A stretch of 64,000 nt of DNA from Selaginella moellendorffii. Taxonomy: Eukaryota; Plantae; Lycopodiophyta. The translations under genes were made by a program, and so were the position numbers. The notes beneath the pieces were generated by a model, which did not search any database, was not told the DNA's origin, and saw only the letters and a list, made by a program, of their open reading frames with translations. The DNA is taken from the NCBI RefSeq assembly GCF_000143415.4, contig NW_003314276.1:893630-957629 (forward strand), in the 5' to 3' direction. The first letter of the stretch is position 1. Each line of letters begins with the position of its first letter. Shown in pieces: positions 1 through 49,100 of the stretch.

Positions 1-58
1 TGGTGTTATCCTATGGTAAATCACCATAGGATAAAGGGTCAAAACCACGTGCGCTACA
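1..58 (+). mobile_element. 3' end of a B'-family LTR nested in the pol gene of element A
   Basis: Ends ...GTGCGCTACA like family B LTRs. Matches the reverse complement of 22401-22456. The pol frame resumes right after it. Confidence 0.7.
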
Positions 59-59
59 G

Positions 60-3000
60 GTGAAGAGTGACAAAAAGACAAGAACGGAAGAAGTGCCTTT
101 AGTGATCCAGCGGGTGTTGGACCAATTCCAGGATACCATGCCGGAGGAGCTACCGGCGGGGCTGCCCCCAGCACGACCAATAGAACATAAGATTGAGCTA
201 GTCGAGGGTGCTGAGGCAGTGGTTCGTCCCCCTTATCGTTTGAACGAAAAAGAACTCAAGGAGCTCAAGTGCCAACTAGAGGAGTTGGTGGACAAAGGGT
301 ATGTTAGGTTGAGCAAGTCGCCGTATGGGGCGCCGGTGTTATTTGTGAAAAAGAAAGATGGATCTATGCGCATGTGCATAGACTACCGCTTGCTCAACAA
401 GTATACAAAGAAGAACAAGTACCCTTTGCCAAGGATTGAGGACCTGTTCGATAGGTTGGGAAAGGCAAAATACTTCTCGAGGATTGACCTAAGGTCAGGA
501 TACTACCAGATCAGGGTAGCCGAGGAAGATGTCGAGAAGACAACCTGTCGAATGAGGTATGGGAGCTTTGAGTTTCTGGTGATGCCCTTCGGGCTATGTA
601 ATGCGCCGGCAACGTTTTCGGCGCTAATGAACCACGTCTTTGTACCCTATCTGGATCACTTCGTGGTCGTCTATATCGACGACATCCTGATCTATAGCGA
701 GACGCTAGAAGAGCATGCCGAACACTTGGCGAAGGTGTTTGAGAAACTAAGGGAACACAAGCTGTATGCTAAAGAGAGCAAATGTGACTTTGCTCAACAA
801 GAGGTAAAGTTTCTCGGGCATGTGGTGGGCCAGGATGGGCTCAAGGTGGACCCGGAGAAGGTCCAAGCGATCCAGGAATGGGAGCGACCATCGAATGTAC
901 ATGAGTTGAGGGCGTTCCTGGGGCTATGCAACTACTATCGAAAGTTTATCAGACACTATTCGAGAGTAGCCCTGCCCTTAACGGACCAAACAGGAAAAGG
1001 GAAGATGGTATGGACAGCAGAATGCGAGGCGGCATTCGTCCACCTCAAAGGGAAGTTGAGGAAGGCTCCCGTATTGGCATTGCCAGACTTTGGTAAGGAC
1101 TTTGAGGTAGAAACGGATGCTTCGGACTTTGCGTTGGGCGCAGTTCTGAAGCAAGACAACCATCCGGTAGCGTTCTTCTCGAAGAAGCTGGACAAGGCTC
1201 AACGGAAGTGGCCTGCGCATGAGAAGGAATTGTTTGCGGTGGTCAAGGCACTCAAGGAGTGGCGACACTACCTTGGGAGACACTTCAAGGTTTACACGGA
1301 CAATGTGGCAACGAAACACTTCTTGTCACAGCCCGACCTAAGAGGGAAACAAGGTCGGTGGGCCAATGCCTTGGCCGAGTTTGATTGCGAAATTCTGTAC
1401 AAGCCTGGGAAGAGCAACATCGTGGCGGATGCGCTAAGTCGAAAAGCGAGCTTGAAGTTGGCAATATCCAGCGCAACAGCAACCTTCTGGGACGATGTGC
1501 GGACAGCATATGAGAACGATGGTCTAGCACAGGAAGTGTTGCTGAGGAATCTAGAGGCGCGGGAAGCTCACCAGAGAGGTGAGCTGCCAACGGAAGAGAA
1601 AACGGGCTATGCGGAACGCAACGGACTCATTTATTACAAGCAAACGAGGGTGTATGTTCCAGAAGGGGAACTAAGGAAGGTGGCCTTAGAAGAGTGTCAT
1701 GACGGACCTCTTGCGGGACACGGCGGAGTGCCCAAGACGATGGGCTTACTCAAGAGGAAGTACCATTGGCCAGATATGGCTAAGGACGTCCAAGACTATG
1801 TAAAGACATGTCCAACATGTCAGCAGGTCAAAGCCGTGACTAAGGCTAGTGGGGGCTTGTTGCAAAGCATCCCAATTCCAGATCGCCCATGGAAATGTCT
1901 TACGATGGACTTCATCACGGGGCTACCCCCAAGCGAGGGGTTCGATGCGATATTCGTGGTGGTGGACCGATTTTCAAAGATGGCACATTTCATACCCACC
2001 ACAACGGACGTGGATGCGGAAGGTGTGGCAAAGCTGTTCTTCGAACAAGTGGTTCGAGTGCGGGGAAGGCCGGAAAAGATTATCTCAGATCGAGATAAGA
2101 TCTTCACTAGTAGGTTCTGGAGGACACTCCTAGAACAGTATCGCACCAAATTGAAATTCAGCACAGCCTATCACCCACAGACAGGTAATGGGTATTAAGT
2201 CAAGATTGATGGCACTAACACTTCTTGACAGACGGACAAACGGAAAGGGTGAATAGGCAGCTGGAGGATTATTTGCGATGCTATGTCTCGGGAGACCAGA
2301 CCGACTGGGTAAATCATTTGGGACTTGCGGAAATGTGTTATAACAACTCACCACACTCAAGCATCGGGGTGAGTCCATGGGAAGTCATCAATGGGCGAGC
2401 TATTGAAGGTCCTGTGGAACTCGGCGTGGCCGAGTATCATGGAGAGTTACCCGCAGTGGAGGCATTCACGGCGGAAAGACTCAACATTTGGAATCTAGTG
2501 AGGGATTCCTTGGAACGGGCTCAACAAAGGCAAACTAAGTACGCGAACCAAAAGCGTCGGGATGTGGAGTTCCAAGCTGGGGAGAAGGTGTGGCTGAACA
2601 CCAAGAACCTCAGACTACCAAGCTGGATCAGCCGAAAGTTGACCCAAAGGTAAAGATGCATGTATTCCTGTAAATGAATTGATCTTGAGTTCCTTAAGCA
2701 GGTTCGCGGGGCCTTATGAAATTGAGGCACGAATCAGTAAAGTGGCTTACCGACTCCGACTTCCTCAAGAGATGGGGAAGATGCACCCAGTGTTCCACGT
2801 GAACTTACTCAAGCCGTACTTTGAGGATCCGCTTCGCAAGGACCAAGTGAGACCTTTACCTGAGGTTATCCAAGAGGAAGAGGAATACGAAGTCGAGGCC
2901 ATCCTCAATGCGCGCAAGAGCAAGCGACAAGGACGCGAGGTGAGAGAGTTCCATGTGAAGTGGAAAGGATTTCCACACTGCGAAGCAACATGGGAACCGG

Positions 3001-3083
3001 AGGAGAACCTAGCGAACGCACGAGATCTAGTGGAGGAATTTCTGCAAGGCAGAACTTTATGTACTTATGCAAAATTCAATTAA
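60..3083 (+). CDS. pol: Pol (RT-RH-INT-chromodomain), spliced: join(60..2184,2232..2649,2702..3083), 5'-partial
   Basis: Removing GT-AG segments 2185-2231 and 2650-2701 gives one stop-free frame with [14 protein letters not shown] and KLTQR-FAGPY restored. Confidence 0.85.
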
Positions 3084-3486
3084 AAATATCAATTTGCAAA
3101 GTTGAGCAAGTGGCATATGTTGGGACCCAAAGGCGCGCCAAAGGTAAGCTAATTAGCATGGGTTGGATAGGTCGACCAGGCGTAGGGCACTACGCCCGAC
3201 TCCCTGCGGGGATGTCGAATCCGTAGACGTATTCTACGGAGGTTGGGTTCGAGTCCCAACCCCCTAGTAAAGCAAGGCTGGGTTCAAGTCCCGACCCTAT
3301 ACTAGGGCGTGGTGAGGTGAGGAGTATAGGGACACCTATATTCCGTTGTCATGGGCTCTTGGCCGGGGAGGCTAACTTAGGCACACCGCTAAGTGGGGGG
3401 ATGCCCCCGGAGACATGGACAACAAGTCGTAGGATAAAACGAGACGTTCGATGTGGGCATCGAACTTCTTCTATGGGTGGTGGAGT

Positions 3487-4635
3487 TGTAAGGAACCGAC
3501 TCCCCGAGATGTCGTAGGCTAAAGGATCCCCAAAAGCTTGACCGAAGTGACAAAGAGTTCATCGGATGGGACCAAGTCGAGGATCGAGTCCAAGACCGAC
3601 TCTAGGACCGAGTTCGAGATAGAGTCCGGAATCGAGTCCGAGACCGACTCGGGGACCGAGTTCGAGTCCGAGTTCGAGTCCGAGTTCGAGACGGAGTCCG
3701 AGATCCGAAATCGGGTCCAAGACCGAGTCCGAGGTCGAGTCCAAGGTCAGGTCCGAGATCGGGTCCGAGATCGAGTCCGTGATCGAGTCCGAACCCGAAT
3801 CCGAAGTCGGATCCGAAATCGGGTCCGAGATCGAGCCAGAGACTAAGTCCAAATACTAATACGGGTCAAGGGGTGAAAGCCCAAAGCGTGCGTCTCCCAG
3901 GGGGGGGGGGGCTGCAGGGGGTTCCAAAAGTATAGTAGGGATAGTGAGGTCCAGGAACCAGTTTTGAAGGGACTCTCCAGTTGGGCTTCCAAACCGACTT
4001 GAGGTTGGGACTGGGACCGAGGGGCCTTGGGTGGGAGTGAGCAGGGACTTGGCTGGTGCCGGAGGGGCCATCCAAGGAAGTGCTCAAGAGCAGCTCCCAC
4101 TCCCGAAAGGGAAACCGATTGCGGTGCTCCCGGCTCATATGGAGTGGTGCCCCACTTGAGTACCATGCGGCTCATTGGTCCTCGCCCTTCCTAGGGGCTT
4201 GGGCCTTCCTTCGGGATGGAAGTGGGGGGCGAGAGGTACCCATACCGGGCCGCTAGGCCACGGTGTTTCGCCCCGGCGTCCCGAAGCAAGTGTTGCACTC
4301 AAGACTTGGGATTTAGAGGGTCCCATGATCAAGTCTTGTGGTACCAAGGGATGTTAGGAACCTGGAAGCTTGGTGTGCTTGGCTGCTTGTGCTTGCGGGG
4401 AGTGTAGCCGAACCTTAAGTCTAGTCTAACCCGGGGAGGGGGATTGGGAGTGATTTGGGAATCCATGGAAGGATGGCTAACACTCCGTTGCTCGTGCAGT
4501 GAGTAGCTGAAACCAAGTAGGAGCTGGTACCATAGGCGAGAACCTTGGCGAGGGAACTTAGCAAAAGCCAAGGCAGTGTTGGACGGATAGGCGAGGTAAG
4601 CTGGCAAAGTGGAAAGGAAAAATTTGTGGCTTACA
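3487..4635 (+). repeat. 3' LTR of family A
   Basis: TGTAAG...CTTACA inverted termini. Near-identical to solo LTR 42250-43399. Confidence 0.92.
3570..3850. repeat. Degenerate GAGTCC/GAGACC/GAGATC hexamer array inside LTR A
   Basis: Visible 6/12-nt periodicity that generates spurious ESE/RVRD ORFs. Confidence 0.85.
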
Positions 4636-18121: not shown

Positions 18122-19595
<1,474 letters not shown>

Positions 19596-22400: not shown

Positions 22401-22945
22401 TGGAGCGCATGTGGTTTTTACCCTTTATTCTATGGTGATTTACCATAGGATAACCATAAAGTGGAACCTAAACCCTTCATGTGCCATGTGTCACATGCCA
22501 CATGCCATGTGTCCAAAGGATAGTGAAGTGGAACCTGAGTTTCAAGGCTTTGGGCCATTGAACAAAGTAATGGAGCCAAACTCCCAAGCATGGAGCTAAG
22601 GAGTGAAGGAATTAGAGCACCGAATGACTCCCGAGTGATTACCCCAAGGAGTAAAGGGACAAGAATACAAAGCAACTTAGGATAGTCTTAAAGTATTTAG
22701 TATCCCAATGTTAAGACCATCACACAAAATGGAACCAAACAGAGTCTGGCGCTATTTTAGTATACTGATGGTCTAACATGAGGATATAGATACTCCATCA
22801 ACTAGCATGGTATGGAACTTAAGCTTAGACCCAAGCCAAACACAGAACAAGGATAGGCACGCAAATAGGAGCTAGACTATGCCTCAAGTTAGTCAATCAT
22901 ACCCAACCTACCCACTATCCCTACTATACATTTGGAACCCCTTAT
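22401..22945 (-). mobile_element. Partial, degraded B'-family LTR
   Basis: Reverse complement matches 1-58, the 3' half of family B LTRs and 55720-55757. Confidence 0.7.
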
Positions 22946-24615: not shown

Positions 24616-27600
24616 TGTGAGACACAAAATCCCTAAGCCCCAAAGTGGAGCTGGAAGGGCGCCATGTAGTAGTGGCCGAAACGAAAGCCAAATGAGCGTA
24701 ACACATTTGCACTAAAAGCTTCAACTGGAAAGGTCGAGAGTGGGAGTGGAACTCCTAACAAAGTGCTCGAGGAACAAGCATGAAGCGAGCAATAAGCGAG
24801 GCTCCAAAAAGGGGACCCAAAAGGACCAACACATGACACGTGGAAGTGTCCGAGATGGAGTCCGAGATGGACCCGAGATGAACCCGAGATGAACCCGAGT
24901 TGGAGTCCGAGGTGGACCCGAGATGGAGTCTGAGATGGAGTCCGAGATGGACCTGAGATGGAGTCCGAGATGGAGTCCTAGATGGAGTCCGAGATGGAGT
25001 CCTAGATGGAGTCCGAGATGGACCCGAGATGGAGTCCGAGGTGGAGTTCGAGATGGACCCAAGACTGGGAACGTGACCAGGACCGAGACTAGGAACGAGA
25101 CCGGGACCGAGACCGAGATCGGAACCGAGACCGAGACCGAGGCCAAGGCCGAGACCGAGCCCGAGCCCAAGTCTGAGTCCGAGTCCGAGTCCGAGTCCAA
25201 GTTCCTTTCTTCATCAGCTGGATGGATGGCCTAGTCTTTGAGAGACGGGATTGTGAGGTAGGTGGTGTTAGACCACTAGTGTGACTAAAGTGAATAGGCA
25301 GGGCCTTAGCGTAATGGGCTGATATATTGGTGGTACCTTGGGGTGTTAGTCATGGGATTGGACACGTGGAGCACTTGGACCAAGTGCAAAGGTTGAGTCG
25401 CATGGATGCCATCCTTGGGGTTAGCAAGCCTAAGTCCTGAATTGGACTTATAGAGGTTGTGAATGAAACTCCTCCAAGTGGTCGGAGGTGCGGTTAAGTG
25501 ACTAAAGTAAAATGGAAAATTTAGTCTCTTACAATTTGGTATCGGAGCTGTTCCTTAGTCCAACTCTTATTGGTGGCCAAGTATATCACCACTTGTATTG
25601 GAATTGGAAAGTCCTAAGTATGGACCTATCCTCGAGGAGTAGCATGTCAAGAGGACATGGCTCTCCACTCGAGTTCATGCGTGAACTTGTGCACGATGTA
25701 GTGCATGGAAAAGGGCCAGTAAAGGAATGACTTTGGGATCTTGGGAATAATATGAGGGTTTCCTCAGAGAGTTGAGGATGTGATCCAGATGAGCGTTTGA
25801 CGCAGCAAACGGGCTAATATAGTTGTGGTAAACAACTATAGTTGGGATCACGGGGAAGATGTAGACTCCAAAACGATAAAGGAGTCACAAGATTACCCTC
25901 ATATAGTGGAGGCTGGTGCTCATAAACTTGAGACCGGAATTGATGACCGAGGGAGGTCAAATACAGAAAAGGACACAAATCCTTGAAATGGTAGCCGGGG
26001 TTACCTCTAATAAATACTGGAACAACCTAAGGAATTGGGGGGTGTACTTAGAGGATGAGTTGGTATTCTCATCACATGGACAAGTGGTCATAAGGGGCAA
26101 AAGGTTGCCCCTAGAGAACAAATCAAGTGTCGGAGTAACACTTGCAAAGATGGTCCTTGTGAGTAGGATATGAATACAAGGAATTGTATTCCAGTGAGCT
26201 AGCACCTCAAAAGTAAGACCTCATGGGTTGTCGAATTAACAATGTCCAAAAAGTTGAATGACTCCAAGAGAGTCAAGGAATAATTTTAAGGGCTTTAGGA
26301 AAGCATTTGTACTGAGGTGTGTGGTGCCCCACAAAGGATGGGGAGGATCTTGAGATCCAAGCATGAGAGCAGTGTGTATCTCATTGATGGCAGAAGGTGC
26401 CATGCTAAAGTCGTGGGAAAGAATTTCCCAGAAGAAAACAACTTTGACACAAAGTTGTGCATGAACTCTATAGTGCAGTGTTAATAGATAATTGGCATAA
26501 GAGACAACCATATTGGTTTTGGCAAAAATACTTGGACACAAGTAAGAAGTGTCATAAAGGTAGGCTCGTGGAGCTGATGGTGTGAAGACACCGAAGGTGC
26601 CAAGGTGTGCTGCCTTGAGGTTAAGCTGGCGGGTTCATGAGAACCCCTTCCAAAGGAATCCCAATGGAAATGGAAATAGCATAGCCTAAGCTGGAAGGCA
26701 TGCGATTAGAGTGTGGTGACCGAGATAATGATGGAGGTGTGGAAGCACCAGCAATGAGTTGTAGGACTTGACAACTGTGAGGCAACTAAGCAAAAGGTGC
26801 AAAATAATTCATAAACTAGTAGAAGGTAACTAGACTTTTTATTGGAATAAGGAAGTTCGATATACCCTTATGGGGGATAAATTGCTTATGTTGCAACATA
26901 GTAAGTCAATGTCGAAAAGGGAATGTTCATTGTCAGAGAGGCCATCATTGGGACACCCAAACACTCTAGAACACCAGAAGGGGGTATTTGGTGTCATGAG
27001 GGCAATGGATAATGCCCAAGGGACAAAGTCCCTAGTGAATGAAGGATAGGAGGTGTTATCCAAATGTCCAAGGTTGTGGAGATGGGAAAAGTCTGTTTAC
27101 CCAAATTGGACAAAGCCAAAGAGGGATTTTGGCAAGGCTAGTGATGAGCATATAAAGGCCCATAAGTAGCAACGGTGATCCTAGTGTGTAGGATTATAAG
27201 GTGAGTCAAACCCGGATTGAGGAACCACTCCCTAGGCTGTCGGGTAGGTTCATCCTTATGAATACTTGCCAAGGCATGGTAGAAAGTGCAAAGCGATCTT
27301 CCTAGTCTTGAGGAGAATAACCGAAGGAAATGTATGAGGCCAAAAGGCAAGTAGTATAGGGATAGAATCGAACCATAGGAATTGACAGGCATGACCAAGG
27401 GTGGTTATGCAAGTTGGGAATAGAGAATCAAGTGGGTGCTCAAGCATGTTGTTACTAGCAACCGAGATGCCATGGAAAGTCTAAAGCATGGGATTGCCTA
27501 TGTTAGACTATATGGTAATTGGAAAGCTAGCGAAAGGAGAGACCTTAGCAAGCTAAGGAACAGAGTTCCTTGAACATTCCCCTAGGTAAATAAGTATCTA

Positions 27601-30600
27601 GTCAGCCAAGTGTAAATGGTTCATAAAACGCGCGAAATCAGAGTGGTGCAACAGAAGCGTGGTCTTGAAGCTTGCCATGAGGCGAGGCTATCAAGATTGG
27701 GGAAGTAGTTCCCGAGTGTTCAAAAAGAGGGCTTTGAATGAAAGTCGATGGTTAAGGACTTTCATGCTTATGCATGAACCATGTTATGGTGGCTAAATGA
27801 CTTGCTAAGTGAGATTGGCAAGTTGAGGGGAACAAATACCCTAGTTGAAGGAGCCAACTTCAAAGGGGTGGCCCAAGGGGACAAGCATGGAGGAGTCCAT
27901 GCATGATCACAGACATGTCAAGTGAGAGGACTTGGCAGTGCGGAGGAACTAGGTTCCTAAGTTGTGATCTGTAGCGCGCTTTAAGTATAAGTTGGTGCAC
28001 TAGCGTGGGGAGTCACGCCAGGCATCCTGCGTGATGCCACTCGTAGATGCATATACGGAGGTTAGGTTTGAGTCCCGACCCTCTAATGCTTGAGTTCGAG
28101 TCCCAAATCACTAAGGCGTGGTGATGGTTTGGAATATGAGGACACTCATTTTTCGATGGTCATGGACTCTCAGTGAGGAGACTGGTTTGGGCACACTGCC
28201 AAGCGAGGATGCCTCGGAGTCGTGATGCACAGTTAGATTGCTTAGTGTGGCTCAGCAAATCTAACTTGAACACTTTGGTGCAAAGGGCACCAAGGACATG
28301 GTGAATGAGATGGGGACACCCAGTCTTGGTTGCTATGGACCCTTGGTTGGATGGGCTGGCTTGGGTGCACCACCAAGTGTGGGGGATGCCTCTGGGGTCA
28401 TGGTCAACAATTTAAAGGTCTAAAAGACCTAATACCTATTGGCAAACTTGTTAAGGTGCCAAAGTTAGATCACTAGGTGATTTTATGGCCAAAACAAAAC
28501 AAGGTCCTTGTGAAGTTATTTCCTAGTTCAAAGTGTTGGTTTGAACTATTGATGATGGTGTGGCTTGGTCAAAGTGACCAAGTGGGAAAAACACCTAATG
28601 GAAATGATCTGTGGCAATGCGATGGCATAGTGAGTCCAAAGAAGTAATCTCTATAAGAGACCCATGAGAGGGTCACAATGTTGGGCTAGAGATAGAGCCC
28701 ACAACAGAAAATGCTAAAGAGACTTACTAGTGGTGAATACCCTCTAAACTTAGCAAAGTAAAGTCTTTGCTGTGGAACCGAAAGGATATCTCGAGAATGG
28801 AGGTAGCGATCTGATGTTGCTAGGTGCAACAATCCAGGATAGGAACAAAAGACTAATGGCTAAGAAAAGAGCGATGGGAATCATGGGAAAGAATCCAAAA
28901 GGCAAAGTTAGGCTAGGAACACTAATGTGTTGGGTGCTAACGAATTGTGGGAAAGACAATGTGTTTTCAAAGATGGATTCCTAATTGCTCCGATTTGGCG
29001 AAAGTGGAAGCTCCAAGGGAGGAGCGGTAAAGTAGCCAAATGATAGGGCCATGGACAACCCTAGCACAAAGTATGATAATTGGAACTTAATGCCCAAGGT
29101 GGCATGAAATAGAAGAGAGGATGATAGTGCCCTCAAGTAAAGAACTTCATAGGATGGGGAAGTGGAGTTGAACAATATGTGCAATGCCAGGTGTCGGAGA
29201 CACCTAGGAAATTGACTTTGAGAAGTCAGAATTAAAAATTCTAAAGTGCAAGGGTTATATCGATAGAAAGTGAGACCATTCGAAAATGAGTAGTGGGATT
29301 GAGTTAGAGAAGGTGTCTCTAATAGGTTTAGTGAGAATTAAACTAATAAAAGGAGAGAACCACCATAAGTGGTCGAATGAGCCTCTAAATTGGAGAAGCT
29401 GTGCTCCTTAGAGGATGGACAAGGCATGGTGAGCCTTTGGTGTCAAACCATAGACAAATATTGGCTGGGTGCCAAGGATGGAAATGGTAATACGTGTGGG
29501 TTTTACTTTACAAAAGGGTTTACCGTTCGATGAGGACATTGAACTTCATCTATGAGTGGTGGAGTTGTGAGACACAAAATCCCTAAGCCCTAAAGTGGAG
29601 CTGGAAGGGCGCCATGTGGTAGTGGCTGAAGCGAAAGCCAAACGAGCGTAACACGTTTGGACTAAAAGCTCCGACTGGAAAGGTTGAGAGCGGGAGTGGA
29701 ACTCCCAACAAAGTGCTCGAGGAACGAGCACGAAGCGAGCAATAAGCGAGGCTCCAAAAAAGGGACCCAAAAGGACTAACACATGACACGTGGAAGTGTC
29801 CGAGATGGAGTCCGATATGGAGTCCGAGATGGACCCGAGATGGAGTCCGAGATGGACCCGAGATGGACCCGAGTTGGAGTCCGAGGTGGACCCGAGATGG
29901 AGTCTGAGATGGAGTCCGAGATGGACCCAAGATGGAGTCCGAGATGGAGTTCGAGATGGACCCGAGATGGAGTCCGAGATGGAGTCCAAGATGGACCCGA
30001 GATGGAGTCCGAGATGGAGTCCAAGATGGACCCGAGATGGAGTCCGAGATGGAGTCCAAGATGGACCCGAGATGGAGTCCGAGATGGAGTCTGAGATGGA
30101 CCCGAGATGGAGTCTGAGATGGACCCGAGATGGAGTCTGAGATGGACCCGAGATGGAGTCTGAGATGGACTCGAGATGGACCCGAGATGGAGTCCGAGAT
30201 GGACCCGAGATGGAGTTTGAGATGGAGTCTGAGATGGACCCGAGATGGAGTCCGAGATGGACCCGAGATGGAGTCCGAAGTCGAGACCGAGATTGGGAAC
30301 GAGACCGGGACCGAGACCGAGACCAAGATTGGGACCGAGACCGAGGCTGAGGCCGAGACTGAGCCCGAGCCTGAGTCCAAGTCCAAGTCCGAGTCTGAGT
30401 CTGAGTCCAAGTCCGAGTTCAAGTCTGAGAGGGTGAAAGCCCAAAGCGTTCGTCTCCCAGACCCTGGGGGGTTTGGTAAGCTCCAAAAGTATAGTAAGGG
30501 GGAGGACTGCAGTGGAGCCAGTTTGGCCAGGAAAGGCCAGTTTGGCCCAGGAAGGCTATACCCAGTGTTGGGAGATGAGCTGCCCATTGGGAAGTCCAAG

Positions 30601-31402
30601 ACTAGAGTGAACACGGACCAACAAGCGGGGTAGTTTGGTGAAGTGTTCAAGAGCCAGCTTTAGTTCCCCCGGGAGATTGACTGGCCAATTCTCCCAGTCC
30701 AAGTGTGGGTGGCACTACCTACTTGGATACCTAGTGTGGCTCAACAGAACCTCGCTCTAAGCCCATGGCTAGAGCACTCAAAGGCAGAAGGCAAGGAGAG
30801 TACCCACGAGGCTCGCGTAGGGCCACGGTGTTCCGAAATGTTGCCCCAAAGTCCTAGACTGTGGAAAGGAAGAGGAGTAACCCTCTGGTGTGGTGACCAA
30901 AGACACAGTCACCCAGTGAGGAAGTCCCAGAGGACAGTTGGACTTAGTGGTCGAGCCTATGGGCTTTGATCTAGTGGCAATGTTGATGAACACAGCCATG
31001 GACAGAAAGGGACTTGGTGGGGACTGGAAGAGAGATATTGGGGAAGGCTATTCCCCATGTCTATGGGCATCCTAAAGATGCTAAGGAGTGGATCTAGGAT
31101 GATCACTCATGGACGGATGGCCTAGCCTTTGAGAGACGGGATTGTGATGCAGGTGGTGTTAGTCCACCGGTGTGACCAAGGTGAATGGGCATGGCCTTAG
31201 TGTAACAGGCCGATATGTCGGTGGTTCAGACACGTGGAGCACTTGGACTAAGTGCAAAGGTTGAGTGGCATGGATGCCATTCTCGAGGCTAGCAAGCCCC
31301 AAGTCCTAACTGGGATTTATGGAGGTTGTGAATGAGACTCCTCCAAGTGGTCGGAGGTGCGGTTAAGTGACCAAAGTAAAATGGAAAATTTAGTCTATTA
31401 CA
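24616..31402 (+). mobile_element. Family C LTR retrotransposon with decayed internal region (non-autonomous)
   Basis: LTRs 24616-25533 and 29566-31402, PBS TGGTATCGGAGC at 25537, PPT before 29566, TSD GCCTG/GCTTG. Confidence 0.88.
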
Positions 31403-31562
31403 GCTTGGTTAGTGCCATCCCATTATATATATTAGCTGTACATTATAACCAATGGAGGTGAACTACTCCATGATAGAAAAAGAGTGTTTAGCAACAGTTT
31501 GGGGTTTCAAGAAATTTCATGTATATCTATATAGTTCTTGGACATTATTAAAAAATGATCAT

Positions 31563-34500
31563 TGTAGCGCACCTGAATTTGGAGCCGAACTCCAAGCCCG
31601 TTGCGCTACAAAACGAGGGTCCGATACAATCCCACGAGCACCAGCTCCCCGTATCTAGCACCTACACGCAAAATAGTGTCAGACGGAGTCTGGCACAATT
31701 TTGGCATATCGGTGGCCTAATGCGAGGAGGAGGGTACTCCACCAACTAGAGCAGCGTGGAGCTTGGGCTTAAGCCCAAGCCAGACGCAGAACAAGGAGCG
31801 ACACAGCCCAGCGGAAGCCAAACTAATGTCTCAGGTGGTCGGACATGCATTCCAACCACTATCCTTACTATACATTTGGAACCCCCCCCTTGAGGAACAC
31901 ACGCTTTGGGCTTTCACCCCAAGCCTCCCTTAGTACCAAAAGTTAGTCTCTGGGACAAGCTTGAAACTTACTAAATATGGAATGGCGCTAGATTGCGAAT
32001 TTGGACACGGGACGAACACCATTGTGTTTGGGCCGATCCCTACATTCCGTAGATATGCCAAATGAGCTGATCTAGACACTTTCCATAAATAGCATTTGGG
32101 ATCGAAATGAGACTAACACAAAGGGCGTGATAGCGAGGGTGTTTGGCAAACACGGTAAGCTATCATCCGGCAATATTGAGGGACTAATCTCAATACGCGA
32201 GGGTTCTTGTCACTAGCTAGTGCAAGACACTACGAGACAGGAATTCCTTACTGGGCTAAGTATGCTTAGCTAATAGCACATAGGAATTCCGTCCTTATGC
32301 TCATCCGGTCTAAGTACACTCGAAATGCCCAGTTAACTCCACTAGCACAAGAGAGGCTACTAAAGGGATCCAACTGTACCGATCTCCTGCCGTCATGGCA
32401 GTAAGGAAAGAGTGTCCGTAAGGACTGGTCGACAAGTATCTTTCGATACCCGAAGTCACATTCACGACACTCTCCCCCCCTTGGGGAAGATCGACGTCCT
32501 CGTCGATGCATACTCGAGTCTAGCAAACTGTCAAGGAAACAACTCCGAAAGTTAACGGAAAGCACACTATGTGGGAAACACACTGACTTAAATGAGTTAT
32601 GGAACGACCTCTCCTCTACGTCCAAAGACGTTAAGACTCAGACACCCTCCGGCCATCACCGACAAGGAAATGACTAACAGAGTTAACCACCCTTGCTGTT
32701 CCGAGTACCACTCGGCTTACAAAGGAATGATACATCCCTGCCCGCAGGGACATAGGGAGAAGGCCAAAGGCCCAACTTCCCCTGGGCAAGAAATCAATCC
32801 CGTCGGGAAGATTTAGATAACTACTATAAACTGGCAGATTAAGTTGTTTACACGACCACGCCCCTTTTCGAAAATGAGTCATCGAGAGAGAGGCAGGGAC
32901 TTGTGATCAGTCTATAATAGTTATCCCCATGGTTATGGATTGGACCCATGCACCGAAGTGCCGAAGTTAGTCTGCCAAAATTGACCCAAGTACGAACAAA
33001 TGAGAGGAACGACACTTTGATTTATAGAAATATATTACTTTATTAGTTTGCAAGATTTATTACAAGGTTTTTACAAAAACTAGTGTTGATTACTATTCTC
33101 ATACTCCGTGATAAGCTCACGGGCATGTGCAAGATTACTAAGAGGCTCCCAAGTTGATTCACAAGTTGGGTAACCTTTCCATTTAACTAGATATTCCTTC
33201 ACACGAGCCCGTCTCCGGAACCGGGAATCCAAGATAGTTTCTACTTCGTATTCAGGTTTACCGTCCACAACATTTGGTGGCGGACGAATCTCCCCTTGAC
33301 GTGCAACATCCATAGTGTAAGGAGTCAATAGGTTGGCATAAAATACATTATGAACATTGGACATCTCCGCAGGCAGATCCAACCGATAGGATACATCACC
33401 AATGCGTTTAAGCACTCAATAGGGTCCAACATATCTTGGCAAAAGCTTCCGAGACAAAGAACCCTTAATGTTCAAGTTTCGGGAAGATAGCCACACCTGA
33501 TCTCCCACTTGATAGGATACATCCCGACGATGGTGATCCTTATCACGTCGATACCTATCCTGAGCTTTGCCCATTGCCTCAGTTGCTCTAGACCAACCTT
33601 GACGTAGCTGCTCCGCATAAGTCTCAACGGCCGGGACCAACACCTCGGACATTGGTTTTGGTACAACAATCTGTTGGGGAACCCCACGAGCATTCCCTTG
33701 CAGCATCTCCCATGGAGAACAGCCTATAGCGCTATGAAATGTGTTGTTGTAACATATTTCTGCTGTATCCAAATGCTCAACCCAGTCGCGTTGGTCCGCT
33801 GCGACATAGTACCGCAGATAATCCTCAACTTGAGCATTCACACGTTCGGTCTGCCCATCAGTCTGAGGATGATAAGCCGTACTAAACTTTAACTTGGTAC
33901 CAAACAACTGGAACAGTCTGCCCCAAAACTTCCCCGTAAACCTCGAATCCCTATCTGAGATCATCTCTTTGGGAAGACCACGAACTCGCACTACTTCATG
34001 GAAAAAGAGCTTTGCTGCTTGTTTCGCATTCACTGTTCCCACAGTTGGAATGAAGTGTGCAATCTTCGACAACCGATCCACAACAACCATCAAAGTATCA
34101 TAACCCTTAGACTTTAGCAAGCAAGTGACGAAATCAAGTGTCACACTTTGAAATGGCCATGTTGGTGCTGGAATGCACTGCAACTTTCCAGCCTGCTTCT
34201 CAGCTTTGCGCTTACATTGCTGGCATATAGGGCAGGAACAGACATAGTCTGCTACATCACCTTCCATACCAGACCAGAAAAATCCCTTTTTCAACGAAGC
34301 TAGCGTCTTTCGCTGTCCATCATGTCCCGCTGTTGGAACATCATGATGTTCCCGCAAAAATAACTGCTGCAGGTCCTTAGAGGGAAGATACAATCTTTCT
34401 TGCTTATAGAATATAAGCCCATCCCGAACTGAGAAGTGAAGCTTCGCATTAGTGCGACTAGCAACTTTTGCTGCTTCGCTACTAGGGTTCTGCTTCAACA

Positions 34501-35826
34501 ACCCCGCACGGCATAAGATTGCCTTCGCCAATGGATTACTTCCATATGAAGCCTGAACGTCCTCCAACCAATCCGAACTGATAGCCGATATTGCCCAGAA
34601 TTGAGCTTGACGACTTAACATATCCGGAACAATATTGTCTTTACCAAGTTTATATATAATTTCAATATCATATCTAGCTAGCTTCTCTTGCCAACGAGCT
34701 TGCTTCGGCATAAGCTTAGGCTGCATAGCAAAGTAGCTCAGTGTGTTACTATCTGTATAAACCTTAGTGTGTCCACCCAAGTAGTGTCTCCAGTGTTCTA
34801 GGGCCGACACTATAGCAAACATCTCTTTCTCATGCATTGGCCATCTTCGTTGGGTTTCATCCAATTTCTTGGAATAGAATGCAACGGGACAACCATGTCG
34901 CCTTAGCGTAACACCAACTGCTTTGTCACAATCTTGCTGCAACACGGCACCAATAGCATATCCAGACGCATCACAATGCACTTCGAAGGGTTTATCAAGA
35001 TCTGGGATCCTAAGAACAGGAACCGTAGTCAAGATCTCCTTCAACCGTACAAAAGCACGTTGACAAGCTGGTGTCCAATGAAATGGAATACTACTCTTCG
35101 TCAACTTAGTTAACGGAAGAGCAATCCTTGCAAAATTGCGGACAAACTTGCGATAGTATCCCGCCAAACCGAGAAAGGAATGAACATCTGATACAGTGGT
35201 CGGGATTTCCCAAGACTTCACCGCTTCCACTTTCTTTGGATCGACTTCAAGCATGCCACCACTAACTATATGTCCGAGAAATTTTACGCACAATTGACCA
35301 AAGCACATTTACTTTCCTTAGCATACAGTTTGTGTTTGCGCAACTTCTGAAACACCAGCTCCAAGTGTTTCAAATGATCCTCCAACGTTTCGCTGAAGAC
35401 TAGAACATCGTCGATGTATAGGACAACAAATGCGTCCAAATAATCTCCGAATATTCTATCCATCATAATGTTGAACGTTGCCGGAGCATTGCATAACCCG
35501 AACGGCATGACAAGGAACTCATAAGATCCGTACCGAGTCTTAAAGGCTGTCTTCTCCACATCCTGATCCGCCACCCGTATCTGATGATACCCAGACTGCA
35601 AATCAAGTCGCGTAAAATACTTAGCCTTTAAGAGTTGGTCAAATGCGAGGCAAAGGATAACTGTTCTTGACCGTGATCTTATTGAGTGCCCGATAATCAA
35701 TACACATCCTCATGGTTCCATCCTTTTTCATAACAAAAAGGATTGGTGCTCCATAAGGTGACTTGCTGGGTCGGATATGACCTTTATCAAGAAGCTCCGT
35801 GAGTTGCTTCTTGAGTTCAGCCATCT
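31563..35826 (-). mobile_element. Family B chromovirus, 3' half (RT-RH-INT-chromodomain, 3' UTR, 3' LTR 31563-32469)
   Basis: Minus-strand pol ORFs with frameshifts and one in-frame stop. PPT complement at 32470-32482. Near-identical to the 45006-53763 element. Confidence 0.92.
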
Positions 35827-36697
35827 TGTAGCACACCTTATCTCTCTCCCCTTAAGCCAACTGGAAAAGAGGCAATTGCTTGATGAGAGAGCCCTTAGTG
35901 GCTATTTTATCCCCATTTATCCCCCAAGGTTCCAAGGATCCACGGTGACAGTATATCCAAATCTCATCCCATGATCACATGTGCTACACTCACCCTCCCT
36001 TCAGAGATGTCAATGTTCTCATTGACTATTGACTAACAACCCCTACTGAGCCAAGGGGAACTAACACCTCCATTTCCGCACTCAATCTACCAATCCCCCC
36101 TTCAGAGATGTCAATGTCCTCATTGACTATTGACTAACAACCCCTACTAAGCCAAGGGGAACTAACACCTCCATTTCCGCACTCAATCTACCAATCCTTC
36201 CATTGTGTAGACTAGTTATTCCATGCGAGGCAACTAGTCATCCACCCGTACCGCAGTCCCATGGTGGATACCTTCGTCCGTGGATACTCCACACAAGAGA
36301 AAGGATATACGCTATTCCATGCGAGGCAACTAGTCATCCACCCGTACCGCAGTCCCATGGTGGATACCTTCGTCCGTGGATACTCCACACAAGAGAAAGG
36401 ATATACGCATGGATGCCCAATATGTACGATTTTCTAATTTAGGGGTAGGAATATACCTTGCTCAAGGGTATATTATATTTTAGGTAGCCACTAATCAATG
36501 GGAATCGAACCCGTGCCATTTGCTCCGATACTAACTGTAACGCACCTTATTTCTCTCCCCTTAAGCCAACTGGAAAAGGGGCAATTGCTTGATGAGAGAG
36601 CCCTTAGTGGCTATTTTATCCCCATTTATCCCCCAAGGTTCCAAGGATCCACGGTGACAGTATATCCAAATCTCATCCCATGATCACATGTGCTACA
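35827..36697 (-). mobile_element. TRIM (miniature non-coding LTR retrotransposon)
   Basis: 162-bp LTRs 35827-35988 and 36536-36697 (TGTA..TACA). Met-type PBS variant next to 36535, PPT complement CTCACCCTCCC at 35989. Internal tandem duplications of 101 and 96 bp. Confidence 0.9.
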
Positions 36698-41339: not shown

Positions 41340-43480
41340 GGTGATTTGGTAGTTTAGCCGCATTTGACATCTGAAAGGCACCTGAAGATCCTCGAGACTA
41401 AGACTATTGTTTACCTTGCATGCTATCTTAGAATTTCCAAGCCAACACTATACAAATACATGTGGCTTGTCGATCCAAATTGGAGAGGCATATACTATAA
41501 GGTACCATTTGAAGAAGTACTTCATCATGTCTGGACTAATAATGCGATGAATCAAGATGGCACAAACTGGGGGATTATCAATTCCCAATCTAGCTATCAA
41601 ATTGGAGGATACTAGTTTAGCAAACACCAAATTTGTGAAGCCTTAGCCACTCATAACCCAACTAGGCTAAAACAGAGGCACTTGACAAGGATTTTACAAT
41701 AGATTTATAGGAATGAGAAGGCTTATACACTTTGCCATATGGAATGTGAGTATTCTTTTATTTCTGCCTTTTGTGAGCATATGTGGTAACATGTTTATTG
41801 TAGCATATTGCAAGCTTGTAAGCTATGGTTTCTATGTATATGCCATTATTTGCGGGGCAACTCATTATATTGTAGCTTGCAAGTTGGCTACCTCCAAAGA
41901 ATCCCATGCAATATTCAACACATATGCATAGGTTGTTCATCGATTTGGAAGGCCCAAGTGCATTCGGAGTAATAATACTCTAGAGCACAGTGAGGTCAAG
42001 AGGGATATAGTCCATTATTGGGGTCCTGCAGCTAAGAGCTTTATATGTAGAATATCAACATGTAACCAAGTACTCACAACATTAAAATTTGTCCAAATAA
42101 GGACTAAATCCATTTTATTTTATAGTATATAGAGCATTTGTGGAAAGAGTTTTTTGAGTGCGTGATGTGGTTTTATAAGCACCTTTTTGAGTCTATAAAA
42201 AATATAAAAATTCTCGATGTATCTAATCCATGGCACAACCAAAGTCTACTGTAAGGAACCAACTCGCCGAGGTGTCGTAGGCTAAAGGATCCCCGAAAGC
42301 ATGACCAAAATGACAAAGAGTTCATCGAATGGGACTGAGTCGAAGATCGAGTCCAAGACTGACTCTGAGACCGAGTTCGAAATAGAGTCCGAGATCGAGT
42401 CCGAGGCCGAATCGGAGACCGAGTTCAAGACCGATTTCGAGACAGAGTCCGAGATCCAAATCGGGTCCGAGACTGAGTCCGAGGTTGAGTCCAAAGTCGA
42501 GTCTGAAATCGGGTCCGAGACCGAGTCCAAGATCGAGTCTGAGACCGAGTCTGAAGTCGGGTTCGAGATCGAGTCCGAGATTGAGTCCGAGACTGAGTCC
42601 GAATACTAATACGGGTCAAAGGGTGAAAGCCCAAAGCGTGCGTCTCCCGGGGGGGGGGGGGAGGAACTGCAGGGGGTTCCAAAAGTATAGTAGGGATAGT
42701 GAGGTCTAGGAACCAATTTTGAAGGAACTCTCCAGTGGGGTTTCCAAACAGACTTGAGGTTGGGACTGGGACCGAGGGGCCTTGGGTGGGAGTGAGCATG
42801 GACTTGGTTGGTGCCGGAGGGGCCATCCAAGGAAGTGCTCAAGAGCAGCTCCCACTCCCGAAAGGGAAACTGACTGCGGTGCTCCCGGCTAATGTGGAGT
42901 GGTGCCCCACTTAAGTACCATGCGGCTCATTGGTCCTCACCCTTCCTAGGGGCTTGGACCTTCCCTTCGGGATGGAATTGGGGGGGTAGAGGTACCCATA
43001 CCGGGCCGTTAGGCCACGGTGTTTTGCCCCGGCGTCCCGAAGTAAGTGTTGCACCCAAGACTTGGGATTTAGAGGGTCCCATGATCAAGTCTTGTGGTAC
43101 CAAGGGATGTTAGGAATCTGGAAGCTTGGTGTGCTTGGTTGCTTGTGCTTGCGGGGAGTGTAGCCGAACCTTAAGTCCAGTCTAACCCGGGGAGGGGGAT
43201 TGGGAGAGATTTAGGAATTCGTGGATGGATGGGTAACACTCTGTTGCTGGTGCAGTGAGTAGATGAAACCAAGTAGAACCAAGTAGGAGTTGGTACTATA
43301 GGCGGGAACCTTGGCGAGGGAATAGCAAAAGCTAAGGTAGTGTTGGACGGATAGACGAGGTAAGCTGGCAAATTGGAAAGGAAAAATTTATGGCTTACAT
43401 CTACATTGTGTCTTTGCTCTATACCTCAAGAAGGATATTTTGCACTAGGTTGCAACCTGGAACCTCCATGAGGTCTGTCT
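41340..43480 (+). pseudogene. Intron-containing DDE transposase relic of the eukaryotic IS3EU-like integrase-core type, interrupted by a solo LTR
   Basis: Spliced translation LCHMES-YCKLVSYGFYVYAIICG...FGRPKCIRSNNTLEH...SFICRISTCNQ-YIEHLWKEF...ILDVSNPWHNQSLHCVF...TWNLH, introns 41746-41803 and 42070-42125. Confidence 0.72.
42250..43399 (+). mobile_element. Solo LTR, family A
   Basis: TGTAAG...CTTACA termini with perfect TSD TCTAC. Confidence 0.95.
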
Positions 43481-46117
43481 GTATCGATGTGGTGATTACT
43501 TTAAGCCATCTCATATTCCTACAAACTTATTTCAACCAATGGAACAAGAGCTTAGGTAAGAAATTTAGTAATGTTATAAAATTCTTTATAAATTGTGCTT
43601 TTGTAGGATTATGCTGGCTGTTGGTGGAAAAAATATTGAAGTTATACTTAAACCATTTCTCTCCAATGTCGAAGGTGCAACTTTGTCAGAGGTAATCTTT
43701 AGAGCAAAAATAGAACAATTTCTTTTAATCTATTTTGTTATGCTTAATTACTTTACAGGCTCTCGGTACTATTTGAAGCTAGGCTTTTTTTATGCATCGG
43801 GAGGGACTCAACTTGGATGAATAATATCTACTTCATTTGGATCTAACAATAGAGTGTGCAATTGCTCATATCACAAATGTAGATCTACCACTTTACATCG
43901 AGAGTGCCTTGATTATAGCAACATTAGTGAAGCAACAAGCTTTGGAAAAATTGCACTTGGCTATAGTCAAAGAAAACTGAATGTTCTTTAGTGTAAATTT
44001 AAAAGTCAATTCTTGATATTCTCAATTTTAGGGTTGCCACATTCAAGATTAGGGTTTACACCAAGTCCCACCCATATTGAATGTGCCTTGGATACAGGGC
44101 AATTTCATTTTATGACAACGTTTTATATGATTTTGTCAATGGTTCATTCATTCTTCCAATCGATTTGTATGATCTAAGCAGAGGTAAGGCTTCTAGTGCA
44201 CACTCCCCTAATCGCAAGACCACCGCCTAAGCAAGAGTGCCACAACTAAGATGGTGGGTAGCTTCTCCTCGATCAAATTTGCATAATCATTCCCTTGTGG
44301 TTTTCAAGCTCAAAGCAAGAACACTACATGCCTTAACAGTAGTAGACACTATGCAAGAAATATCTTGCGAGCATGCACCCAAGCACTTGATGTTCCATAG
44401 TTGGTACAACCAACAATCCCACAAGACACATGCCAACCACTTGATTTTCCAGGCTCTACAGTAGGGACATCAACTCCAACAGCATCCCACCCATAGCTCC
44501 CAACTGCATTTGAGCAAATAGAGTGTCACCTAACATTGCATACATTGGAACATATTCAGAACCTCTAGCATGTTTCATTCTCCTCACCTTCCCTAGAAAA
44601 CAGTAGCCCTAGTGTCTGAAGAGTAAAGTCTGAATGCCTCATACCCACGGTGTTGTCTAATATAGAATGCTGCCACCAACACCAACTATGGGATGTGCTA
44701 GCCCATATAGTGCTATTGCTACCAACCGCTACAACTCTCGCAACTCAATCTACTGGTACAAGTGCCAATACCTGGCCATCTACCTCTCGAAACAACAAGC
44801 GGTCTAGCTCGGTAAGTTTTTCATTTGTCCCCATCTTTTGTCCATGTGTTTTTTTGTGTAGGGTGAGTTGACAATGCCACCACACCACCAAGCTCATACT
44901 TCCCCATCAACATTCCAAAACTACTCCTAAGGATCGACATCATCATTTAGTGGAGCTTTAAAATTTAGATATATTCAAGCTGACCCTCAAGGTGGGCTGC
45001 CATGTTGTCACGAATGTGACTTTGGGTATCGAAAGATACTTGTCGACTGGTCCTTATGGACACTCTTTCCTTACTACCATGACGGCAGGAGATCAGTACA
45101 GTTGGATCCCTTTAGTAGCCCCTCTTGTGCTAGTGGAGTTAACTAGGCATTTTGAGTGTACTTAAACCGGACGAGCATAAGGACAGAATTCCTACGTGCT
45201 ATTAGCTAAGCATACTTAGCCCGGTAAGGAGTTCCTGTCTCGTTATGTCTTGCACTGGCTAGTGACAAGAACTCTCGCGTATTGAGATTAGTCCCTTAAT
45301 ATCGCCGGATGATAGCTTACCGTGTCTACCAAACACCTTCGCTATCATGCCCTTTGTGTTAGTCTCATTTCGGTCCCAAATGCTATTTATGGAAAGTGTC
45401 TAGATTTGCTCATTTGGCATATCTACGGAATGTAGAGGTCAGCTTGAACACAATGGTGTTCATCCCGTGTCCAAATTCGCAATCTAGCGCCATTCCATAT
45501 TTAGTAAGTTTCGAGCTTGTCCCAGAGACTAACTCCTGGTACTAAGGGAGGCTTGGGGTGAAAGCCCAAAGCGTGTGTTCCTCAAGGGGGGGGGGGGCTG
45601 TGGGGGGTTCCAAATGTATAGTAGGGATAGTAGTTGGAATGCATGTCCGACCACCTAAGACATTAGTTTGGCTCCCGCTAGGTTATGTTGCTCCTTGTTC
45701 TGCATCCGGCTTGGGTCTAAGCCCAAGCTCCACGCTGCTGTAGTCAGTGGAGTACCCTCCTCCTCGCGTTAGGCCACCGGTATGCCAAAATTGTGCTAGA
45801 CTCCGTCTGACACCATTTTGCGTGCAGGTGCTGTATATGGGGAGCTGGTGCTCGTGGGATTGTACCGGACCCTCGTTTCGTAGTGCAACGGGCTTGGAGT
45901 TCGGCTCCAAATTCAGGTGCGCTACATTTGGTATCAGAGGAATTGTCTCAGTGATTCCTATCCAATTTTTGTCGGATTTTCTAACTCAAGTTGCATACGC
46001 AGAGACTTTTCTAGTAGATCCGAAGCGACCTGTGTAGGATTAGTTGGATTGCACCATTCGGTGAGAACGTTGTATGCATGTTCAGTTACTGATAGAGGCA
46101 TGCATGTAGCTAGCAGG

Positions 46118-49100
46118 ATGGTGAAAAGGAACCATGCTGATGACGCTGAAACCTCTAGATGGTCTAATCGAGAGGAGGAAACTCCTGCTAGAGATGCTGC
46201 GGAAGAGGCAGAGGCTGAGTCGGAAGAGGAAGAGCCAAATGCTGCGGCGTTGCAGCATACGGCTCAGGAAGTCGAGATCGAGAATTTGCGAAAGGAGATT
46301 TGCAAATTGAAGAAGGAGAACAAGAAGAGGAAGAAAGAAGCTGAGGCAGCTAAACCAGCAAAGCCTAAGCAACCGAACTCCTCTTCAAGTTCTGAGGACG
46401 ATGAAATTCTGTAACCGCCCCCGGTTGCACGAGTTTCAAAGTTCAAGCCTCCAAAACCACCCAACTTCAAAGGCATGCAGGACTATCAGGTTTTGGAAGA
46501 CTGGGTTTACAATATGGAGAACTACTTCATAGCGGCAGACGTAGATGATCGTACGAAAGTTGCGTGTGTGCAACCCTTTCTTACCGATCATGCCAAAACT
46601 TGGTGGCGCCAAAGTGTGTGCTGAAAAAGGGCAGACTAGAAGTTGGACCAAGATGCGGTCTCGTATCCGTAAGGAATACTTGCCGGATGATCTTGGTCTG
46701 AGACTTCGCGCGGAGCTGCGGCAGTTAAAGCAGCGAGGGGATCTCATGCATTACGTTAATGCGTTTGCTCAAAAGCGCATTATGATTGCAAATATGAGTG
46801 ACGAAGATCCTCGGAGTTATTTTCTGGAGGGTTTAAGTTCACTTTCTCGCAATGAGATTTTGAAGTTTAAGCCAAAGACGTATCTGGAGTGTAAGGAGGC
46901 AGCATAGCAAGTTGCCTTTAGTCACTCACTCATGGAACAATATCAGCAACCGTATGCTGGTAACTCAAATAAGAATAGGAATTCTGGGAATAAACAAGGT
47001 GATTGAAAGCAAAGGGTGGAAAGCAGGTTTTGCCCTGGGGGCTCACAAGCAACAGTTAACAAAGGTGGTGGTGGTTGGAGACCACCAGCAGCTTCTTCTG
47101 GTCCTAGGCCCTCTGTTCCTCCTCCTAGTGAGTACAAGCAGCAGCAACCTGCAAAACTTGCTCCTAGCGGAACAGGTAGTGTGGGTCATTGCTTCCATTG
47201 TGGAGAGTCGGGACATAGGTCCTCGGAATGTCCCAACAAGTATAAGATAAGGTCTTGGGTTAATGTCATGAGGGAAGACGGTGGTGGTGAAGCTGAAGGG
47301 GTTGACGAGTTGGTCAATGCAAACTATGAGGAAGAAGAGGTGAGTAACTTTCGTTGCTTTCCTCAAACTTTTCTTGCAGTCAATGCAAACACTGATCCGT
47401 TGATGTATCTGGTAGGCTTTGTCCGTGGACACCGAATCCGAGTGATGATTGACACAGGAGCTACGCACAGCGTGATATCCGAAGACTTAGTTAAGTTGTT
47501 AGGATTGAATGTTGAGCAAATGTTGCCTATGCACTTCCGGTTTGCGGAAGGTGGGCAAGTAGCCAGAAAGTTTGTGAATGATGTTCCAATAAAGATATCC
47601 AAGTGGAAAGAAAGAGTGGACTTGGTAGTGTTGAAGATACCAGATTTTCAAATGGTGTTTGGTATGGACTTCTTCAACAAATTTATAAAAGGGATTTATG
47701 GTGCTGGACAAAGTCGTATCACATTGAAGTCAAAAGGACGTCCCGATGTGTCCTTCTAGTTGCAAAAGCGTTCCTTAAAGGATTGGGATGGAAAGTTCCT
47801 GATTGCGAGGGCCGCTCAAAAAGCAGCTAAGAGGGGATGTCGGACCTTTTGGGTTCAAGTGATGGAAGCTGAGAGTGTGGGTGACTCAGTTCGAATTGGC
47901 GACGGGGTTGATCCTATACCAAAGAAGATATTGGAGTTGTTGGCACAGAATCAGGATATCTTCCCGAAGGATTTGCCACCAGGGGTACCCCCTAGCCATG
48001 AGGTTGATCATCGGATTGAGGTTACTCCGGGTTCTAAACCACCTATGAAAGCTCTGTATCGATTGAACATTAAGGAGATGGCTGAACTCAAGAAGCAACT
48101 CACAGAGCTTCTTGACAAAGGTCATATCCGACCAAGCAAGTCACCTTATGGAGCACCAATCCTTTTTGTTATGAAAAAGGATGGAACCATGAGGATGTGT
48201 ATTGACTATCGGGCACTCAACAAGATCACGGTCAAGAACAGTTATCCTTTGCCTCGCATTAATGACTTGTTTGACCAACTCTTAAAGGCTAAGTATTTTA
48301 TGCGACTTGATTTGCGGTCCGGGTATCATCAAATACAGGTGGCGAATCAGGATGTGGAGAAGACAGCCTTTAAGACTCGGTATGGATCTTATGAGTTCCT
48401 TGTCATGCCGTTCGGGTTATGCAATGCTCTGGCAACGTTCAACACTATGATGGATAGAATATTCAGAGATTATTTGGATGCATTTGTCATCCTGTATATT
48501 GACGATGTTCTAATCTTTAGTGAAACGTTGGAGGATCATTTGAAACACTTGGAGCTGGTGTTTCAAAAGTTGCGCGAACACAAACTGTATGCCAAGGAAA
48601 GTAAATGTGCTTTTGGTCAATTGCGCGTAAACTTTCTCGGACATATAGTTGGTGGTGGTGTGATTGAGGTCGATCCAAAGAAAGTGGAAGCGGTGAAGTC
48701 TTGGGAAGTCCCGACCACTGTATCAGATGTTCGTTCCTTTCTCGGTTTGGCGGGATACTATCGTAAGTTTGTCCACAATTTTGCAAGGATTGCTCTTCCA
48801 TTAACTGAGTTGATGAAGAGTAGTATTCCGTTTCATTGGACACTAGCTTGTCAGCGTGCTTTTGTACGGTTGAAGGAGATCTTGACTACGGTTCCTGTTC
48901 TTAGGATCCCAGATCTTGATAAACCCTTCGAAGTGCATTGTGATGCATCTGGATATGCTATTGGTGCCGTGTTGCAGCAAGATTGTGACAAAGCGGTTGG
49001 TGTTACGCTAAGGCGACATGGTTGTCCCGTTGCGTTCTACTCTAAGAAATTGGATGAAACTCAACAAAAATGGCCAACGCATGAGAAAGAGATGTTTGCT

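Follow-up and report, generated by a model that had tools for sequence, protein, structure and literature searches.

Two spliceosomal introns inside the integrase of a Selaginella moellendorffii chromovirus family

Two short inserts that break the pol gene of a chromovirus of Selaginella moellendorffii are real spliceosomal introns, and they are a feature of a whole family of elements (family A) and not of one copy. The evidence makes it quite probable that this family keeps its transcripts in two states, messenger and genome: a whole integrase is made only from the doubly spliced mRNA, and the RNA that is reverse transcribed is likely left unspliced. The copy from which the analysis started lies at the very beginning of the 64,000 nucleotides of DNA that were analysed (the window), and its introns had been proposed in a first-pass annotation of that DNA.

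Family A shows the domain order of a Ty3/gypsy chromovirus in its Pfam matches, namely reverse transcriptase (RT), RNase H and integrase followed by a C-terminal SH3 domain and a chromodomain. Its pol comes in three pieces, the first of which encodes RT, RNase H, the integrase zinc finger and part of the integrase core, the second the remaining core, and the third the SH3 domain and the chromodomain (Table 1). The window contains the 3' LTR and the purine tract of this copy, and in addition a solo LTR with a 5-bp target duplication; the 5' half of the copy lies beyond it. The first 58 bases come from the terminus of a different repeat, and pol of the window copy is therefore cut off ahead of RT; with a foreign repeat end adjoining pol at this point, the copy is nested or truncated. 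Hence, its initial description as otherwise intact has to be given up, all the more since five of its eight private differences are amino-acid changes. The 708 open codons that had been ascribed to pol are right when counted from position 60.

Table 1. Features of the family-A copy, and of a related solo LTR, in the window
Feature	Positions	Strand	Basis and details
End of another repeat (LTR-like), outside the element, cutting off family-A pol before RT	1..58	+	92.6% to 22401-22454; ending resembles the family-B LTR
Exon 1, visible part: RT, RNase H, integrase zinc finger, core up to HPQT	59..2184	+	Pfam RVT_1, RT_RNaseH, Integrase_H2C2, rve
Intron 1, 47 nt, phase 1	2185..2231	+	donor CAG/GTAATG; CTAAC at 2215-2219; in-frame stop at 2196-2198
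Exon 2: catalytic Glu (2243), remaining integrase core, linker, first third of SH3	2232..2649	+	Ty3 1269-1388; P0030 922-1060
Intron 2, 52 nt, phase 2	2650..2701	+	donor AAG/GTAAAG; stop at 2651-2653
Exon 3: remaining SH3 (GPY motif) and group I chromodomain; stop at 3081-3083	2702..3083	+	Pfam SH3_Tf2-1 (profile 24-63), Chromo
Purine-rich tract preceding the 3' LTR	3473..3486	+	sequence
3' LTR, 1149 bp, TG..CA, 12-nt G run at 3900-3911	3487..4635	+	
Solo LTR of the same family as family A, with 5-bp target duplication	42250..43399	+	1041 identities in 1134 aligned columns

The coordinates, lengths and GT-AG ends first assigned to the two inserts were confirmed. Both are AT-rich (GC 0.38 for insert 1 and 0.35 for insert 2, against 0.50-0.51 in the adjacent coding DNA), the first contains the CTAAC motif that had been pointed out, and each has an in-frame stop near its 5' end. 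A 5-nt repeat is present at both ends of insert 1 and a 4-nt repeat flanks insert 2; GT..AG ends fit exactly one of the equivalent registers in either case (one of six for insert 1, one of five for insert 2). When the inserts are removed by these ends, collinearity with related elements is restored. Exon 1 matches residues 1156-1267 of the Ty3 Gag-Pol protein and exon 2 residues 1269-1388, a single residue lying between the two matches. The first two catalytic Asp residues of the integrase are encoded in exon 1 (1908 and 2088), and exactly 35 residues, if the break is counted as a single unknown one, lead from the second of them into exon 2 and to the Glu, which bears out its earlier assignment as the third residue of the D,D35E triad. 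The inserts had also been likened in size to host introns; this is correct in so far as six host introns read by eye measure 49, 55, 58, 61, 71, and 81 nt, a range at whose low end the inserts fall. Scored against the donor consensus, the window copy matches at seven (intron 1) and six (intron 2) of nine positions, with no G at +5, and two host tubulin donors match at six and seven of nine. The donors of the element are no worse than these, and weak donors alone therefore fail to explain intron retention. Intron 2 ends in a tandem acceptor whose two AGs (2697-2698 and 2700-2701) are 3 nt apart. As read by eye, the first intron of the beta-tubulin gene (18516-18596) is of the GC-AG type.

Eight of 24 listed sequencing runs (X1, X2, X4, X5, X6, X7, X18, and X20) were examined as assembled contigs, a type of data that carries neither splicing rates nor strand nor single-molecule phasing and from which rare variants drop out. 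The types of the runs are guesses by the search tool, and none of the five labelled as RNA (X4, X5, X6, X18, X20) is on record as such. Expressed copies are spliced at exactly the junctions that had been predicted: intron 1 is skipped in three of these five probable RNA runs (X4 and X5 from one study, X18 from a second), and intron 2 in four of them (X4, X5, X18, X20; three studies). The joints of X5 (both introns) and X20 (intron 2) are listed as 47 and 52 nt with GT..AG ends, and the skips of both introns in X4 and X18 were read off contiguous record coordinates. Intron 1 is kept in the RNA-labelled runs X6 and X20, in X7 and in DNA, and contigs of X6 enter intron 2 from either side. Because X18 and X20, with 16-18 differences in exon 2, represent further members of the family, splicing is no peculiarity of a single locus. 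The spliced X18 transcript has two stop codons in exon 2; dead copies are hence spliced as well, and splicing alone is no proof of function.

The doubly spliced transcript of X4 and X5, which covers window positions 1400-3030, differs from the window copy at 11 of about 1,530 aligned bases; judged by the many rare synonymous alleles that the two have in common, it probably stems from another locus of the window copy's minor sub-lineage. The X20 transcript contig, in which intron 1 is kept and intron 2 is absent, begins at 2151 with 543 unlike bases upstream, and the majority allele has an AG directly before this position. The joint could reflect subgenomic splicing out of the 5' region of the element itself, a chimera with host sequence, or a copy that has suffered a deletion; a 30-nt loose end of the contig has no match within the window.

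Among the DNA runs, X2, for which the joint table is complete, has no intron-less joint at either intron among its 9,771 contigs, and there is none among the best 15 of the 28 joints of run X1. Variants located within the introns (2188, 2205, 2655) are carried by 80-91 X2 contigs, and many distinct copies therefore hold introns. A single piece of X7, a run without an assigned type, extends across both introns. Introns are thus family-wide, with X7, X18, X20 and many X2 contigs representing copies other than that of the window, and a single-copy accident, considered as a candidate, was rejected on finding them across diverged copies and runs. None of the three outcomes that the first-pass annotation had named as refuting its proposal came about. 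Conservation of the splice signals, which had been anticipated for both introns, is seen for intron 1, whose GT, CTAAC, and AG are unchanged in X7 and X20; likewise, the best 40 of 130 variant rows of X2 contain no change at either donor GT, the CTAAC or the intron-1 AG. The intron-2 acceptor is less constant: at every one of the last three bases of that intron, 14-16% of the depth summed over X2 shows a change. Two of these three changes, C>T and G>A, are of the type that dominates everywhere in these copies, and the AG located 3 nt upstream could, from its position, rescue an altered acceptor in frame. X7 and X20 have another intron-1 donor in common (2188-2189), in which a match at +4 is traded for one at +5, and in X20 the intron-1 stop is altered (2197) into another stop codon.

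The variant counts that bear on selection rest on the best 40 of 207 and 40 of 130 rows, ranked by support, and on few sites. Among the rows listed, 17 of the 25 distinct differences that X7, X18, and X20 show in exons 2 and 3 prove synonymous when read in the spliced frames, where a fraction of 0.34 is expected (p=5e-4); the other two frames yield 4 and 6. We then split the differences of the window copy from the X1 majority into those common to X4 (lineage-level) and private ones. Behind intron 1, 8 of 9 lineage-level differences are synonymous vs none of 4 private ones (Fisher p=0.007), and in exon 3 alone, i.e., behind intron 2, the corresponding counts are 4 of 4 and 0 of 3, each among the rows listed. 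The 8 synonymous changes out of 9 argue that the spliced frame has been under selection, and the copies, all of which carry the introns, diverged with these in place. In keeping with faster drift, intron 1 of X7 differs at 6 of 47 bases vs 12 of 529 in exons (p=0.002); the excess in X20 is not significant (4 of 47 vs 14 of 450; p=0.08), and intron 2 drifts no faster than exons (1 of 52 in X7), all counted in the rows listed.

Relatives outside the family are uninterrupted. Site 1 is free of gaps in all 115 spanning proteins (of 120) and has no insert in any of the 75 scorable loci from a set of 81 metagenome or viral loci at 45-57% identity. Of the 100 proteins that span site 2, 84 have no gap and the others differ by a few residues; 50 scorable loci contain no credible intron (34 exact, 15 within 10 nt, and one at +34 from a poorly aligned end). 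The protein searches returned no member of family A, the best identity being 57% over a short stretch and about 55% over long ones, and two short ORFs of the family-A element had no match in the protein collection looked up. Family B, which had been described as uninterrupted, indeed has no insert at site 1 in both of its copies and none at site 2 in the one copy that covers it. In a quick tree of 41 rows it forms the sister branch of family A (SH-aLRT 93), and the two families together group with angiosperm polyproteins (SH-aLRT 96) in this tree, which is without a labelled Galadriel reference. With the sister family and the relatives intron-less, sequence comparison places the gain of both introns on the family-A lineage, after its split from family B.

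A tandem duplication was tried as the origin of intron 1 and not retained. The 19 matches in 47 positions to the preceding 47 nt, with both ends in register, hint at such an origin but do not rise above chance: out of 708 offsets, 3 have a higher score, 9 tie, and 8% do as well when the last three bases are left out. There is no such signal for intron 2, and within the window neither a second copy of either intron nor a sign of an introner family was found.

That the whole integrase depends on splicing, as the first-pass annotation had held, follows from the stops that the retained introns place before the catalytic Glu and inside SH3; in intron 1, retention, unlike splicing, yields a stop ahead of this residue. 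Unspliced RNA, translated up to this stop, would provide Gag, protease, RT, and RNase H together with a dead integrase stub, and spliced RNA would supply the targeting integrase to the same particles; the two RNAs would have to meet in one cell. Because new copies keep both introns, we infer that the reverse-transcribed RNA is unspliced. By analogy with barley BARE, spliced RNA would most likely be kept from reverse transcription by a separate packaged pool that escapes splicing, and short introns with imperfect donors may help in this escape.

Spliced RNA might not truly be excluded from copying, intron-less copies being rare or missed and the active lineages having carried introns by chance. 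Such an account can draw on the single DNA run with a complete joint table, on X1 being represented by its best 15 joints and on the tendency of contigs to drop rare variants. Yet X2 resolves single-copy deletions, with six other joints at depths of 7.75-12.2, and still has no intron-less joint; a 13% divergence of intron 1 between copies has left both introns where they were; and the intron-less sister family shows that an intron-less element works (PMC3350952). We therefore regard this account as improbable.

Very improbable, in our estimate, is a switch with three states, as first proposed for this element, in which RNA freed of intron 1 only would encode an integrase that is active but lacks targeting, RNA freed of both introns would encode one directed by its chromodomain, and regulation would decide between them. 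The intron order permits it, the frame of exon 2 closes in a clean stop at 2651, partial splicing exists (X20), and a Tf1 integrase without its chromodomain was more active and less specific (cited in PMC3350952). However, intron 2 splits the SH3 domain and not the link between SH3 and chromodomain: it falls between positions equivalent to 1060 and 1064 of the relative P0030, whose SH3 domain spans 1040-1101. With the break about one third into SH3 (GPY/F), most of the C-terminal domain would be lost along with the chromodomain, and the working untargeted integrase claimed for the intron-1-only form is thus unlikely. That form occurs in none of the five RNA-labelled runs, although contigs cannot prove absence, and the sole partial form, that of X20, is the reverse one, with intron 1 kept and intron 2 cut, which is incapable of producing an active core.

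We give hardly any credence to the proposal that the inserts destroyed the integrase, so that a non-autonomous family borrows the enzyme of its sister family and splicing is incidental. Dead copies are spliced, an apparently non-coding element with the purine tract of family A is present in the window, and the 2012 survey found no intact copy (PMC3350952). Set against this are the synonymous excess behind both introns and the fact that unrecognised introns would themselves yield the verdict "not intact". The LTR element in question (about 24616-31403) has a primer site that we take to be of the tRNA-Met type, and its internal DNA of about 4 kb contains neither pol nor a plus-strand frame of 90 codons; its purine tract agrees with that of family A at 87.5% over 48 nt, and from these sequence features it is likely a non-autonomous partner. 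A solo LTR related to it is found at about 50750-52651. Library artefacts, in which reverse transcriptase jumps between the short direct repeats that border the inserts, have practically no chance of explaining the skips, despite the 5-nt and 4-nt repeats, given that the identical two junctions, both GT..AG, recur in different copies and two to three studies, that folding is weak (-8.4 and -4.1 kcal/mol), that the splice signals are conserved and that the selected downstream frames require removal before translation.

Family A is probably SM1-Galahad of S. moellendorffii, an identification based on five matching structural features, with structure and not sequence compared. In the original description, SM1-Galahad has hundreds of copies that are about 95% alike, with no intact copy found, and its reconstruction comprises a main ORF that lacks the chromodomain and, behind it, two ORFs of 316 and 309 bp, the last of which has a group I chromodomain; the LTR is 1076/1146 bp with a run of 11-25 G (Novikov et al. 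2012, PMC3350952). Family A has the same host, downstream ORFs of 318 and 309 bp, an LTR of 1149-1150 bp with 12 G and a group I chromodomain. As to the host, one protein encoded in the window, the only one of five looked up that the collection contained, falls at 90% into a cluster with a protein named S. moellendorffii. The published reconstruction thus very likely holds both breaks already, read there as separate ORFs, in contrast to our reading as exons of one spliced gene; "intron" and "splic-" occur zero times in the main text of PMC3350952. Two decayed copies of family B are located at 45006-53763 and about 31563-35830 (minus strand), with LTRs of 921-935 bp. By its length of about 7.37 kb, obtained after the nested insert is removed and the deleted piece is added, family B is probably SM2-Galahad.

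Among known introns of LTR elements, that of the plant element Ogre (Ty3/gypsy, Tat) is the closest in logic: some of the transcripts lose it, which allows the pol sequence behind it to be translated (PMC6317226, PMC12786077). However, Ogre has a single intron, placed in the gap of 274 bp on average that separates Gag-protease from RT-RH-INT, and this intron gates all of RT-RH-INT (the same sources), whereas family A, whose protease-RT region lies beyond the window, has two introns of about 50 nt inside integrase domains that gate integrase alone. The short-Gag splicing of Ty1/copia elements (EVD, BARE1) resembles family A in that spliced and unspliced RNAs of one element differ in fate (PMC5580714, PMC3735527), the packaged RNA of BARE being a separate, uncapped pool (PMC3735527). 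The logic is reversed, for there splicing truncates the polyprotein and the unspliced RNA encodes all of Pol; PMC5580714 also reports no conserved splicing in Arabidopsis Ty3/gypsy elements. Foamy viruses likewise obtain their integration enzymes from a spliced RNA distinct from the genomic one, but gag is spliced out to give all of Pol as a separate protein and, in the passages available, no intron lies inside an enzyme domain (PMC7828637). Penelope-like elements keep introns through retrotransposition but are of a non-LTR type with another mechanism; this retention has been called highly unusual among retroelements and its significance unknown (PMC8557442). Hence, on the accessible parts of these sources, none of Ogre, copia short-Gag and foamy-virus pol has introns inside an enzyme domain or gates integrase alone. 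A 2025 review describes plant LTR elements as generally without introns and names Ogre and EVADE as exceptions (PMC12786077), and the consulted portions of PMC2864245, PMC2911113, PMC5718144, and PMC12477816 contain nothing on integrase introns. Our search of the literature outside Repbase, subscription journals and REXdb supplements 1 and 3 returned no report of introns in the integrase of an LTR element, and SM1-Galahad is named in only one paper of the literature searched.

In S. moellendorffii, two ordinary short introns, one in the catalytic core and the other in the SH3 domain of an integrase, have survived a large amplification. Intron loss on passage through RNA is what classically proves retrotransposition, and the survival of these introns therefore means that the element must bar spliced RNA from copying very strictly. 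We give an even chance to the further idea that splicing itself is the mark by which the RNAs are sorted, with the spliced form making integrase and being barred from particles and the unspliced form serving as genome without making integrase; introns gained de novo would then have been amplified to hundreds of copies without loss, come under selection and set the dose of integrase apart from that of RT. The two junctions are a built-in tag with which the choice of an LTR element between mRNA and genome can be measured, and the intron-less sister family in the same genome makes for a datable intron gain in a sequence that is expected to purge introns. Where a family is on record without an intact copy, splicing may be the whole explanation, and annotation based on ORFs may miss further families of this kind in genomes with small introns.
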